DNA from: an uncultured bacterium
GTDB lineage: Bacteria; Planctomycetota; UBA1135; GCA-002686595
NCBI GenBank assembly: GCA_943787795.1
Contig: CALSNU010000007.1
Span: 64,001 to 128,000 of the forward strand
Length of the DNA: 64,000 nt
Reading direction: 5' to 3'
In this document: positions 1 through 39,750 of the stretch, in pieces
Layout of the letters: each line of letters starts with the position of its first letter
Numbering within the stretch: the first letter of the stretch is position 1
Made by a program: the position numbers and the translations under genes
The notes under the pieces: generated by a model
What the model saw: the letters and a program-made list of their open reading frames with translations, nothing else
Told to the model about the DNA's origin: nothing
Databases searched by the model: none

Positions 1-66
1 ACCGCCGCCAGTGGGACGCAACTCAGCAATCTCCGCCTGCCGCCAGCTTCAACCCCTCTCGGAACT

Positions 67-34589: not shown

Positions 34590-34650
34590 CCGCTGAAAGG
34601 ACCGTTCGGCGGTGGTCCAGGAGCAGGGCGCTCCCTATCCTCTGCGCCTC

Positions 34651-35761
34651 ATGTCACCCACCCCCGCCGACTACCGCGACCGTACGAAGGAGCTCCGCGG
34701 CAGACTCAGTCTGCTGACGGAGAGTCTTTGACTACCCCATCAAGCTGAAACGATTCGAGGAGATCGAGGAGCTGCAGGTCAGCCCCGACTTCTGGAATGA
34801 CCAGGACCAGAGCCAGAAGCTGGTCCGGGAGCTGAAGGGGCTCCGGCACGTGGTGGAGCCCGTCAGGAGCCTGGAGAGCGGCTTCGAAGAGGTCGAGCTC
34901 CTGCTGGAGATGGCCGAGGAAGGGGGTGAGCTCGAGGAGGTCTCCAGCGAGCTGGACGCCACCCTTGAGGGAGCGAAGGACACGCTCGACGACCTCGAGT
35001 TCAAGGTCATGCTCGGCGGGCCGAGCGATCAGATGGGGGCGTTCCTCCAGATCAGCGCTGGCGCCGGCGGGGTCGACGCCTGTGACTGGGCCTCGATGCT
35101 CATGCGCATGTACGTACGCTGGGCGGAGCGCCGCGAGTTCGACCTCACCCAGGTCGAGCTGAGCGAGGAGGACCAGGGCGGCATCCGCGGCGTGACGCTG
35201 CACATCGAGGGGCCCTACGCCTTCGGCTACCTGAAGGCCGAGACCGGCGTGCACCGGCTGGTTCGCATCAGCCCCTTCGACGCCCAGGCTCGTCGCCAGA
35301 CGGCCTTCGCCTCGGTGGACGTCACCCCTGCGACCGATGATTCGATCGAGATCGACATCAACGAGTCGGACGTCAAGGTGGACACCATGCGCGCGGGCGG
35401 CGCCGGTGGTCAGCACGTCAACAAGACCGAGTCGGCGGTCCGCCTGACGCACCTGCCGACCGGGATCGTCGTCCGCTGCCAGAACGAGCGCAGCCAGCAC
35501 AAGAACCGCGCCACGGCGTGGAGCATGCTGAAGGCCAAGATCCTCGCCATGGAGGAGGCCAAGCGCGACGCCGAGATGAGCAAGCTCTACGGCGAGAAGG
35601 GTGAGATCGCCTGGGGCAGCCAGATTCGCTCCTACGTGCTGAACCCGTACCAGATGGTCAAGGACCACCGGACCAACGTGGAGGAGGGCAACGTCCAGAA
35701 GGTGCTCGACGGTGAACTCGACCCCTTCATGGAAGCCTACCTCAAGCTGAAGAAGGGCTAG
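34651..35761 (+). CDS. prfB: Peptide chain release factor 2 with programmed +1 frameshift
   Basis: ATG 34651 reads 26 codons to CTT-TGA-C (34726-34732); the +1 frame continues to SPF and GGQ motifs. Confidence 0.97.
34719..34732 (+). promoter_or_regulatory. RF2 autoregulatory frameshift cassette
   Basis: GGAGAG internal SD-like element followed by T-CTT-TGA-C. Confidence 0.93.
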
Positions 35762-35830
35762 GGGCAACGAGGCGGCCGGAATCGGCGGCGGTGGGGTGGC
35801 AAGCCCCGCCGTGCGGACTAGGCTCCCCGC

Positions 35831-36223
35831 ATGAGCGCCTCCAGCCACCCCCACTTTGACGACCGCGGAACCCTGACCTGGTACACGACCATGGCGGAGG
35901 CGAAGGCCGCCGCCGCCGCGGAGGGGAAGAAGATCTTCATCGAGTTCGGGCGCGAACTCTGAAGCCAGTGCCGCAGCCTCGTGGAGGCTGTCATTCCCCG
36001 CCCTGACGTGGCGCCCATGCTCCAGGCCTGCTTCGTGGCCGTGGCCTCGGACTGCGATGAGCCGGAGGACGAGGTCATCGCCCTCGCCCAGAAGGTTGAG
36101 GACGCGATGATGCTGCCCTTCGTTCTCTTCGCCGATGCGGACGGGAACTACCTCGACGGGTACTCGGGGGTCGTGACGCCTCCGTACCTCATCAAGAAGC
36201 TCACCGAGTTCTCCGGCTCGTGA
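35831..36223 (+). CDS. Thioredoxin-fold selenoprotein candidate (UxxC), 130 aa
   Basis: [54 protein letters not shown]...; in-frame TGA 35960-35962 sits at the first Cys of a CxxC. Confidence 0.85.
35963..35995 (+). promoter_or_regulatory. Bacterial SECIS-like hairpin
   Basis: CAGCCTC-GTG-GAGGCTG stem-loop (35974-35990) begins 11 nt after the UGA; G-containing apical loop; lower stem AGTG/CATT. Confidence 0.7.
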
Positions 36224-38433
36224 TGCTCGTCGCCCTCTGCGTCAGCGCGGCCCTCTCCATCCCGACCATGACCGGCGCCACGCCGCAGGATGACGAGCCC
36301 GCGCACGGCGTCAGGGCACCGCTACCCTCTCCAGAGGAGATCGCGGCGCTCCCGGCGGACGGCGGCGATGAGTTCAATCGGCTGGTCTTCTCTGGCAGCC
36401 CCTACCTCCTCCAGCACGCGCGCAACCCCGTGGACTGGCACGAGTGGGGCCCGGCGGCGTTCGAGCTCGCGGCCGAGCGCGGCGTGCCGGTGTTCCTCTC
36501 GATCGGCTACTCCACGTGCCACTGGTGCCACGTGATGGAGCACGAGAGCTTCGAGGACGCAGAGGTCGCGAGGCTCATGAACGAGGCGTTCGTGTGCGTC
36601 AAGCTCGACCGCGAGGAGCGGCCGGATATCGACCAGCTCTACATGTCGGTGACCCAGGCGCTCACGGGGAGCGGCGGCTGGCCGATGACCGTGGTCATGA
36701 CCCCGGACAAGCGCCCCTTCTTTGCGGGGACCTACTTCCCGAAGCAGTCCATCGGCCAGCGCTTCGGGATGCTCGAGCTCGTCCCCGCGCTCTCGACAGC
36801 GTGGAGCGAACGTCGTGAGGAGGTGCTGCAATCGGCGAAAGCGATCACCGAGGACCTCGCGGCGCGGGTGGCGGGTGCTCCAGGGGGCGACCTGACGGCG
36901 GAGCACCTCGCCGAGGGAGAGGCGGAGCTCTCCCGGCGCTTCGACAGCGCCCGGGGCGGCTTCGGCGCCGCCCGCAAGTTCCCCGTGCCTCACGAACAGA
37001 CCTTCCTCCTTCGGCGCCACGGCGCCACCGGCTCGGCTCGCGCCCTGGAGATGGTCGAGCGGACCCTGGGTGCCTGGCGCCTTGGCGGCGTGTTCGATCA
37101 GGTGGGCTTGGGGATCCACCGCTACTCCACGGACCCGAACTGGCTCGTCCCGCACTTCGAGAAGATGCTCTACGACCAGGCGCTCTGCAGCCTCGCCTAC
37201 GTGGACGCCTGGCTCGTGACTGGTGACGCCACGTATGAGCGCGCGGCCCGCGAGATCCTGGCGTACGTGAGCCGGGACATGACCTCGCCGGAGGGCGGCT
37301 TCTACTCGGCGGAGGATGCGGACAGCGAGGGGGAGGAGGGGCTCTTCTACCTCTGGACCGAGGCCGAGCTCGGCGAGGTGCTCGACGCCGAGGAGGCAGC
37401 GTTCGTACGGGAGCGCTTCCGGACCAGCGACGAGGGGAACTACCGGGACGAGGCGACCGGGGAGCGGACGGGCCGCAACGTGCTCCATCTCAATGCGCCC
37501 CTCTCCGACGCCGAGCGAGCGCGCTGGGACGTCATGAGGGCGCGGCTCTTCGAGGCCCGCGAGGGGCGGATCCACCCGCTCAAGGACGACAAGGTCCTCA
37601 CGGACTGGAACGGTCTGATGATCTCGGCCTTCGCGCGAGCTGGCCGCGCATTTGGCGACGAGGCCCTGGTGGCCACCGCTCGGCGGGCGGCGGACTTCGT
37701 GCTCTCGGAGCTGCGCACCGATTCAGGGCGGCTCCTGAAGCGCTGGCGTGGCGGGGAGGCGGGGCTCCACGGGATGCTCGAAGACCACGCGTTCCTGGCC
37801 CAGGGGCTCCTGGACCTCTTCGAGGCCTCCCACGAGGTCGCTTATCTCGTAGCCGCTCGTGAGATTGTCGACACCGCTGTCCTGCACTTCCATGACGACG
37901 AGGCTGGCGGGTTCTTCCTGAGTCCCGATGACGGTGAGGCGCTGCTGGTTCGCTCCAAGACCATCTATGACGGCGCGCGCCCCTCCGGCAACTCGGTCAT
38001 GGCCTGCACCCTCCAGCGGCTCTCACGGATGACCGGGGAGACGGGCTACGAGGAACTTGCCGCCGGCACCATTCGGGCCTTCAGTGCTCAGGTCGAGCAG
38101 AGCCCCAGCTACTCGACGCAGCTCCTGGCGGCCGTGGACTTTCAGACCTCCACGACCCGCGAGATCGTGGTCGTGGGTCCGCCGCAGGCGCCGGAGACAC
38201 GGGCCATGCTGGCCCTGCTCGCCCGCCGCTATGCGCCCAACGACGTGGTGTTGCTCCGTCCGCCCGGTGAGGAGGGTGCGTCGTTGGCCGCCGCCTGCCC
38301 CTTCACCGAGCCCCTCGTGCCGGTGGACAGCAAGGCCACAGCGTACGTGTGCACCAACTTCGCCTGCGCTGCGCCGGTGACGACGCTCGAGGCCCTGGCT
38401 GGACTCCTCGAGGATGGCGCCGCGGATCGCTGA
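36223..38433 (+). CDS. YyaL/SPATA20-type thioredoxin-domain protein
   Basis: [44 protein letters not shown] overlap with the upstream gene. Confidence 0.95.
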
Positions 38434-38459
38434 GGGATCCGAGCACCTCACCAACGAGC

Positions 38460-38498
38460 GCGCCCCCCGCGCAGGCTGGTCGGCCTGCGCGGGGGCGC
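38460..38498. terminator. Long GC hairpin between convergent genes
   Basis: GCGCCCCCCGCGCAGGC...GCCTGCGCGGGGGCGC. Confidence 0.55.
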
Positions 38499-38538
38499 AT
38501 TGGTTGGCTTCAGGCTCCGGGTCACCCGGAGGCTCCCA

Positions 38539-39750
38539 TCAGAGGAGCGGCACGGCGACGGCGCCGGTGAAGTTTGAGACGGCGCTGCCGCCGACGGAGT
38601 CGCGGTGCCAGGCCTGGAAGTTCCAGGTCTCGCCCGGCATGGCGGAGACGGAACCGGTCGGCGTCGGAAGGGCCCCCAGGTCGATCTCGAGGCTGAACGT
38701 GCCAGTGGACCCAGAGGACTGGATCTGGCCGGGGCCAACGTAGCGACCGATCGAGCCGCCGAGGCAGAGGTCACCCTGGCTGCCACCCGGGTTCGCCGTG
38801 AAGCCCTGCGTGTCGGAGACGAGGAAGAACCCGAAGGCGTTCTGCGGGAGCGAGGACGCGCGCAGCGTCATGTCGTGGTCGCCGATGAAGCGGCTTCCGT
38901 CGGCCTCGATCGCGCCGCCGACGCCGGTCGAGTTGATCGCACCGTTGCAGTAGACCGCGCCCGGATCGAGGGAGCGCGGGAGCCACGCCGCGGCGCTCGT
39001 GGATGTGGCGCCAGAGGCGTTGATGCCGTGCGGAGCGTCGTACGTCCCGGTGCCCAGGTTGAAGACCTGCGGCGGGAACGTCGGGTCGTCGTCGATGAGG
39101 TAGACCTTGTTGTTGCCGACCGTGCACCCGTCGACGTCGGCCGAGCCAGAGATGTAGGCGGAGCCGGGGACCGGGGTGGCCGTCCCGGCATCGATGTCGA
39201 TGGCTACGATCTCAAGGGCGATATCTTCAGGGGCGTAGAACAGGCCGTCTGCACGGTTGAAGCCCAGGCCGCTGATGGAGGCTGAGATGCCGTTCGTGCT
39301 GTAGGAGATGACCTGGGTCGCCACGAGCGTGTTGGGATCGAGCTCATAGAGACCGCGGGCCGTCGAGGGAGCGCCGAACGGCGGGAAGGCGAGCGCGAGG
39401 ATCAACCGGTCGTTGATGCTGTCGTAGCCCATGCCGTCCCAGCGGTAGAGGCCGCCGGTGTCGGTCACGATCGGGCCGACGTCGACGGGCCCATTGGGGC
39501 TCCCGTACTCCCACGTGGAGAGGCGACCGGGGGTGCCGCCGACCAGCCACATGAACTGCTCGGCGTCATTGGCTGCAGCACCAAAGACCTCGAACAGGTC
39601 GAACTGGAGCAGGGGGGAGACCGTGCCGGTCTCGACTTCTTCGAGGTAGGACTCTCCGAAGGAGAAGCCACCGTAGAGCTGAGCAGAGGCCGGGGCGCAG
39701 AGGGCGAAGGCCAGCAGGGAGGAGCCGGCGACAGTGATGGTGGAGTTCAT
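38539..39750 (-). CDS. Secreted beta-rich (propeller-like) protein with shared C-terminal domain
   Basis: Signal peptide ending ASA-Q; C-terminal PGGSQGDLCLGG and GETWNFQAWHRD; start moved to 39750. Confidence 0.8.
   Translation of the reverse strand: MNSTITVAGSSLLAFALCAPASAQLYGGFSFGESYLEEVETGTVSPLLQFDLFEVFGAAANDAEQFMWLVGGTPGRLSTWEYGSPNGPVDVGPIVTDTGGLYRWDGMGYDSINDRLILALAFPPFGAPSTARGLYELDPNTLVATQVISYSTNGISASISGLGFNRADGLFYAPEDIALEIVAIDIDAGTATPVPGSAYISGSADVDGCTVGNNKVYLIDDDPTFPPQVFNLGTGTYDAPHGINASGATSTSAAAWLPRSLDPGAVYCNGAINSTGVGGAIEADGSRFIGDHDMTLRASSLPQNAFGFFLVSDTQGFTANPGGSQGDLCLGGSIGRYVGPGQIQSSGSTGTFSLEIDLGALPTPTGSVSAMPGETWNFQAWHRDSVGGSAVSNFTGAVAVPLL

Follow-up and report, generated by a model that had tools for sequence, protein, structure and literature searches.

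A very probable SECIS-dependent selenoprotein with a thioredoxin fold in an uncultured planctomycete

Introduction

Does a TGA codon that interrupts an otherwise open reading frame mark the end of a gene or the position of a selenocysteine (Sec)? The question arises at one locus of the window analysed here, a stretch of 64,000 nucleotides from an uncultured bacterium of the Planctomycetota, where the list of open reading frames holds only an 80-residue tail whose GTG start codon at 35981 is also the loop of an RNA hairpin. A first-pass annotation of the same DNA had proposed that the frame opens farther upstream, at ATG 35831, and encodes a 130-residue U-x-x-C selenoprotein that standard annotation cuts short. 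This proposal is now strongly supported by the machinery of the host, by the TGA and Cys codons at homologous loci and by the hairpin, and the databases indeed carry the 80-residue tail. From comparisons at the sequence level, we infer that the gene is very probably a genuine SelB- and SECIS-dependent selenoprotein gene.

Results

The gene and its in-frame TGA

Translation confirmed both the opening of the frame at ATG 35831 and the restriction of the list to the tail. The frame runs to a terminal TGA at 36221-36223, giving 130 residues when the only earlier TGA, at 35960-35962, is read as Sec in a U44-S-Q-C47 motif (Table 1). The stop had been said to fall on the attacking cysteine of a CxxC, and column 44 is indeed Cys in 118 of the 120 listed protein homologues, the other two being 80-residue tails; protein collections cannot display TGA forms. 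Genome-wide, TGA terminates 1939 of 2326 long open reading frames and is thus the main, ordinary stop, which makes codon 44 a case of recoding and rules out reassignment of the genetic code. The codon is also spanned by contigs from two DNA runs that are not marked as possible sources (X5 and X11), with no difference listed there, so that both agree with TGA rather than with TGC or TGT.

Table 1. Coordinates of the features at the locus (positions in the window)
Feature	Position	Strand	Basis
Very probable selenoprotein gene, 130 residues, thioredoxin fold (Thioredoxin_7/DUF255-like), without signal peptide	35831..36223	+	PF13899 43.6 bits (cut-off 27); pLDDT 93.5
N-terminal HPHFDD motif, residues 6-11, family signature	35846..35863	+	H6, P7, F9 and D11 invariant (111-row alignment)
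In-frame UGA, predicted Sec44, attacking position of U-S-Q-C	35960..35962	+	Cys column of homologues; TGA in 52/86 distinct loci
Cys47, presumed resolving residue	35969..35971	+	Invariant in alignments
Hairpin of the bacterial SECIS, spanning +11..+29 from the UGA, with G of the loop at +19	35973..35991	+	Fold; orthologue conservation; fits the consensus model given in section 5 of PMC13188914
Leu95-Pro96 at the thioredoxin cis-proline loop	36113..36118	+	Invariant; secondary structure; precedes strand 97-101
YyaL/DUF255 protein (CHWC), start overlapping the selenoprotein gene stop, signal-like leader; partnership only putative	36220..38433	+	
prfB (release factor 2), upstream neighbour, CTT-TGA +1 frameshift site at 34726-34731	34651..35761	+	

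Fold and family

The protein passed the Pfam cut-off of 27 bits for both Thioredoxin_7 (PF13899) and DUF255 (PF03190, 30.3 bits) and marginally missed the same cut-off for Thioredoxin_2 (PF13098, 26 bits). Its AlphaFold model matches thioredoxin, DsbD-gamma and DUF255 domains and, together with the PF13899 score, places it in Thioredoxin_7. The closest solved folds are DUF255/Thioredox_DsbH and DsbD-gamma structures (PDB 3ira, 7tkv, 2lst and 1uc7; TM 0.61-0.71), which share 16-25% identity with it but have CxxC and are mostly domains of larger proteins. Invariant residues include W17, G40, R41 and D76 in addition to those in Table 1, and from the fold the Leu95-Pro96 bond is predicted to be cis. 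Judged by eye, the 130-residue sequence has no signal-like leader.

Among the best 150 profile matches from 1.84 billion representatives, 91 carry an HPxFxD-type motif, and many of the matches are proteins of 250-550 residues with N-terminal hydrophobic leaders. A search of the Atlas returned only Thioredoxin_7/DUF255 clusters. The cluster of 80-residue tails has 17 members, and among the 15 listed the five that are named are all called 'hypothetical protein'. An exported branch of the same family was also observed, with about 300 residues, a signal-like leader, a TGA and a hairpin in the same register; exported forms with TGA and the same stem are L103, L106, L111, L145-L147, L150, L151, L156, L158 and L160. 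An additional cysteine at position 75 was considered as a correlate of Sec and rejected, since outside the genus it occurs in 10/34 TGA and 15/34 Cys rows and does not track codon 44.

Genomic neighbourhood

The first-pass annotation saw a possible redox module in the gene and its downstream YyaL/SPATA20-type neighbour, and the overlap of stop and start suggests translational coupling. A dedicated redox partnership with YyaL would also accord with their adjacency in 18 of the 76 loci of a GTDB contig scan (14 TGA, 4 Cys), across several genera, and with the distant likeness of the two thioredoxin domains (26% over 69 residues). However, the fetched flanks of the other 58 loci, some of them short, held no match (at least 500 downstream bases were available in 69/76), and purH is adjacent in 17/76 (9 TGA, 8 Cys). 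With this query, YyaL was not found in genomes G007, G016 and G021, the first two being same-genus genomes about 90% complete that keep the TGA gene, and in G011 it is unlinked, more than 60 kb from the TGA gene. Moreover, all 15 adjacent YyaL proteins inspected by eye have a hydrophobic, signal-peptide-like N-terminal leader whereas the small protein has none, suggesting different compartments. The proposed module thus reduces to local synteny: an obligatory module is unlikely, and we regard a dedicated partnership, as well as YyaL being the substrate, as improbable.

The gene for the UGA-reading release factor, prfB, lies upstream of the UGA-recoded gene within the fetched 4 kb in 26/76 loci and is adjacent in 11. 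The CTT-TGA site within prfB is the usual +1 frameshift motif. The placement of prfB probably reflects housekeeping synteny, and a regulatory link to the recoded gene is possible. A promoter and terminator scan of 34600-38700 found nothing. Contigs of two RNA runs from one study (X15 and X16) flank 35940-36016 without covering it, breaking within 35881-36030 where DNA contigs pass through; contigs cannot reveal transcription or strand.

Selenocysteine machinery

The first-pass annotation had named selA, selB, selC and selD as a check, and all are present: in the host genome selA, selB and selD score above their cut-offs, a tRNA-Sec was found with 69 bits, and SelD itself has an in-frame TGA. 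Among 38 relatives, 36 have selA and 37 have selB. In G003, a TGA-form genome that is 78% complete, a tRNA-Sec was found but not selA and selB. The Sec trait appears to be very common in Planctomycetota, with selA in 221 of 301 sampled genomes, so the presence of the machinery discriminates little and is a necessary but weak test. All five Cys-form genomes in a 30-locus set of relatives possess selA and selB, and selA occurs in 29/29 further family-bearing genomes. Against this background, and with Cys-form hosts keeping selA and selB, host machinery is uninformative about the choice between Sec and Cys.

The hairpin downstream of the UGA

As described in the first-pass annotation, a perfect stem of seven Watson-Crick pairs (35974-35980 with 35984-35990) around a GTG loop follows 11 nt past the TGA; an additional G-U pair (35973/35991) closes it. 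Folding energy alone fails as evidence for this hairpin, the fold being unremarkable for GC-rich DNA, with z scores against shuffles of -0.55 (61 nt), +0.09 (101 nt) and -2.14 (local 33 nt; 4/200 shuffles). Judged by comparison, both with orthologues and with the TGA background of the genome, the hairpin is beyond chance: a 7/7 stem in the same register occurs at only 210 of 107,846 genomic TGA trinucleotides, and the loop contains GT at 14 of these.

The criteria in the legend to Fig. 2A of PMC13188914 describe a bacterial SECIS with a loop of 3-9 nt lying 16-37 nt from the UGA, a G in loop positions 1-2, a stem of 4-16 bp and an energy of -7.5 kcal/mol or lower. Scored by purpose-written scripts rather than bSECISearch, the window hairpin has a loop of 3 nt with G first, 18 nt after the UGA, and 8 bp at -12.0 kcal/mol. 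Energies of -7.5 kcal/mol or lower occur in 51/52 TGA loci versus 5/34 Cys loci of the comparison below.

Codon 44 and the stem among orthologues

Codon 44 is TGA in 17/17 same-genus relatives, which share 76-97% identity and in which the frame continues uninterrupted before and after it. The 76 loci of the GTDB contig scan are mostly titled Planctomycetota, with a few Acidobacteriota and one Clostridia. Pooling gave 106 loci, of which 86 were distinct, and codon 44 among these is TGA in 52, TGC in 30 and TGT in 4, with no other codon, so homologues with either TGA or Cys at the site, for which a search had been suggested, are plentiful. Saltatorellus ferox Poly30 has a TGA form at 80% identity and Engelhardtia mirabilis Pla133 has TGC. 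TGA forms also lie outside the main lineage, at L099 and L102 (titled Pyrinomonadaceae) and L105 (titled Limnoglobus), and they include Acidobacteriota records.

All seven pairs of the stem (+11..17 with +23..29) can form in 48/52 TGA versus 2/34 Cys loci, a contrast that a Fisher p value overstates because the rows are kin and the register was taken from the window's own hairpin. The TGA is therefore neither private to this genome nor accompanied by an unconserved hairpin, which the first-pass annotation had named as grounds for doubt. The stem is imperfect in four TGA loci; outside the genus, by subtraction, it is intact in 30/34 TGA loci. Compensatory changes in the stems of TGA loci are abundant: pair 13-27 is A-T in 25, G-C in 16, T-A in 10 and mismatched in 1; pair 14-26 is C-G in 28, G-C in 23 and T-G in 1; and pair 15-25 is C-G in 45, T-A in 4, G-C in 2 and T-G in 1. 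Through this pairing, codon 49 and codon 53 change together, in the combinations AGC/GCT (21 loci), TCC/GGA (10), GCC/GGC (7), ACC/GGT (4), GCT/AGC (4), GCG/CGC (2) and others (4). G19 and T20 are present in 52/52 TGA loci and also in 34/34 and 33/34 Cys rows, respectively, because both encode Val51.

When 19-nt windows were slid along the gene, only one of 30 separated Sec from Cys forms, and it was the stem (-10.8 versus -4.2 kcal/mol). Across 18 genus rows, degenerate codons are invariant at 5/6 stem positions versus 2/50 elsewhere, and the frozen codons include Ala GCT, which accounts for 8% of Ala codons genome-wide. An even sample of the phylum contained the family in 32/301 genomes, with a complete stem in 13/15 TGA and 0/14 Cys loci (29 parsed of 30 loci, with some overlap with the earlier set). 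The hairpin is under selection only in the TGA forms.

A UGA read as Cys, or Trp, under stimulation by the hairpin but without Sec insertion would fit the frequent Cys orthologues, which occur even in selA-bearing genomes. We consider this reading very improbable: the hairpin sits where the bacterial SECIS model places it and has the G expected in the loop, the genome encodes SelB and tRNA-Sec, and its members of known selenoprotein families have an in-frame TGA with comparable hairpins. That the TGA is a nonsense mutation or sequencing error, with the 80-residue tail or nothing being made, has a negligible probability, since, although the tail is called as a gene in databases and the stability of the hairpin by itself is ordinary, the same TGA recurs in the 52 loci, which according to record titles span two phyla and several families, and is never TAA or TAG, both halves of the protein are conserved, independent contigs confirm the codon, and the tail would lack the active site.

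Exchange between Sec and Cys

With Sec insertion as the preferred reading, the Cys forms appear to be functional orthologues of the Sec forms. On a quick tree of 85 rows, Sec and Cys interchange 18 times, seven of these changes being forced by strong branches, and 17 changes remained when residues 44-54 were masked. The trees came from 'quick' searches of about 134 columns, with L109 omitted for its N run and the longer forms trimmed to 175 residues, and 34 of 82 inner branches were open, so that neither the direction of change nor the ancestral state is fixed. In eight independent pairs the stem followed the codon in 5.2 on average, opposed it in none and showed no difference in 2.8 (median p 0.06, underpowered). 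Among the Cys loci, L068 and L073 alone have the whole stem, and both adjoin TGA rows on the tree. Their hairpins resemble the 'remnant SECIS' that the legend to Fig. 4 of PMC1794560 describes for Sec-to-Cys conversions, which suggests recent loss of Sec.

Relation to catalogued selenoproteins

A 2026 review (PMC13188914) lists 119 selenoprotein families, many of them U-x-x-C thioredoxin folds; in its available text there is no stand-alone Thioredoxin_7/DUF255 entry, no row of the family list matches by name or motif, and 'DUF255', 'YyaL' and 'Planctomyc' do not occur. HPHFDD is likewise absent from the text of the four supplements of PMC12013277, where long cells are cut. Our literature searches returned no paper on an HPHFDD family, and a motif search gave HPHFDD in none of the matches listed.

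The nearest catalogued family is the 'thiol:disulfide interchange protein' (Pfam PF13098, with the motif UxxC and the representative WP_011366075.1; Table 1 of PMC13188914 and Table S1 of PMC12013277). Compared by eye, it belongs to the same helix-prefixed thioredoxin subclass, and both proteins have Sec first in UxxC within a thioredoxin fold. WP_011366075.1, however, is longer, with a C-terminal extension and without the HPHFDD arm, whereas the window protein is a single domain of 130 residues that falls below the PF13098 cut-off; the residues before and including Sec are FFNPGU versus FGRELU, and the cis-proline loops are WTPT versus MLPF. These differences in motifs and architecture make the window protein a variant within the known UxxC kind.

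No NCBIfam model reached its cut-off. The best match was the catalogued Trx7/PDZ selenoprotein NF041199, which shares a Thioredoxin_7 N-terminal domain, at 24.5 of the 300 bits required (27.7 and 26.8 in two relatives), covering profile positions 2-58 of 390; the window protein has no PDZ domain, and the Trx7/PDZ motif is given as CxxU in the corresponding entry of PMC13188914. The VPGUxxT thioredoxin-like models NF041382 and NF041383 scored 19 versus 275 and 12.2 versus 350 bits, and the motif here is GRELUSQC. BSepDB, according to the available part of PMC13326102, examined the Poly30 genome by tblastn (E 0.01) with known families, so the gene may already be filed there under a generic name. 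The window gene is a well-supported addition to the known class of UxxC thioredoxin-fold selenoproteins and probably represents an uncatalogued family, as judged from the NCBIfam models, the 119-family list and the comparison by eye with the nearest family.

Discussion

We propose that the hairpin 11 nt downstream of the UGA would recruit SelB with Sec-tRNA, and that Sec would be inserted at codon 44 to give a 130-residue cytoplasmic thiol-disulfide oxidoreductase with a U-S-Q-C centre. By analogy with thioredoxin chemistry, the selenolate of Sec44 would attack a substrate disulfide and Cys47 would resolve the intermediate to form a selenenylsulfide; a cytoplasmic reductant, for which the one TrxB of the genome is a candidate, could then regenerate the enzyme. 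Such catalysis by Sec44 and Cys47 is likely from the fold and the motif. The model for this chemistry is Sec-thioredoxin (PF00085), an experimentally verified UxxC class in which the same motif sits within a small thioredoxin fold that stands alone; the window protein differs from it in having no PF00085 match (E up to 1) and no WCGPC-type context. As to its role, the commonest neighbours, prfB and purH, make it most likely that the protein works as a housekeeping or general reductase alongside the one canonical thioredoxin of the genome, and general disulfide reduction is our best guess, held with modest confidence.

On balance, we favour the view that the locus belongs to an uncatalogued 'HPHFDD...GRxxUxxC' family with small cytoplasmic and exported branches (the latter of about 300 residues or more), both including Sec forms, in which Sec and Cys might have been swapped many times within Sec-competent hosts and the RNA stem of the Sec forms might dictate residues 49 and 53. 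The residue pairs found there in Sec forms are S/A, S/G, A/G, T/G, A/S and A/R; if this view is correct, they would be a clean example of a protein sequence shaped by the structure of its mRNA, and the cultured Saltatorellus ferox and Engelhardtia mirabilis would constitute a natural Sec/Cys pair. The switches in Sec-competent hosts, during which the SECIS would be acquired or eroded, might offer a useful case in which to ask why bacteria use Sec in preference to Cys. Reading the TGA as Sec also corrects a systematic annotation error, by which near-identical genes have been deposited as 80-residue hypothetical proteins minus the active site. Since selenoproteins with UxxC in a thioredoxin fold rank among the most common types known, a specialist may find the result solid rather than surprising.

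The host genome (G000) looks rich in selenoproteins, with about 20 candidate UGA genes. Eleven genes with an in-frame TGA, hand-picked from 119 scan candidates, resemble known kinds, namely FdhA, SelD, SelW-like, ArsC-like, AhpD/CMD, GrdB/PrdB-like, HMA, DsbD, two TlpA/redoxin-like and a second Thioredoxin_7; they lie at C4:645494(-), C5:186287(+), C1:589883(+), C4:534942(+), C4:327374(-), C8:38656(+), C2:109390(-), C2:479457(-), C1:189924(+), C1:576892(+) and C6:70103(+). Five candidate read-through frames of exported type with hairpins, L114 (C4:265626 and 265386, -), L125 (C5:49310 and 48764, -), L123 (C2:428135, -), L126 (C2:247580, +) and L124 (C6:581711, +), had no NCBIfam match and either no Pfam match or a weak one to DsbD_N (L124), and could possibly represent further uncatalogued selenoprotein families; L114 and L125 have two in-frame TGAs each. 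Finally, FG-GAP repeat and FG-GAP/ASPIC-UnbV proteins have a hairpin downstream of an in-frame TGA at L117 (C2:620327, -) and L129 (C8:5572, -), similar contexts occur at C3:277088 and C1:1248719, and the pattern TGA-S-x-(Y/F)-W-R recurs in three places.
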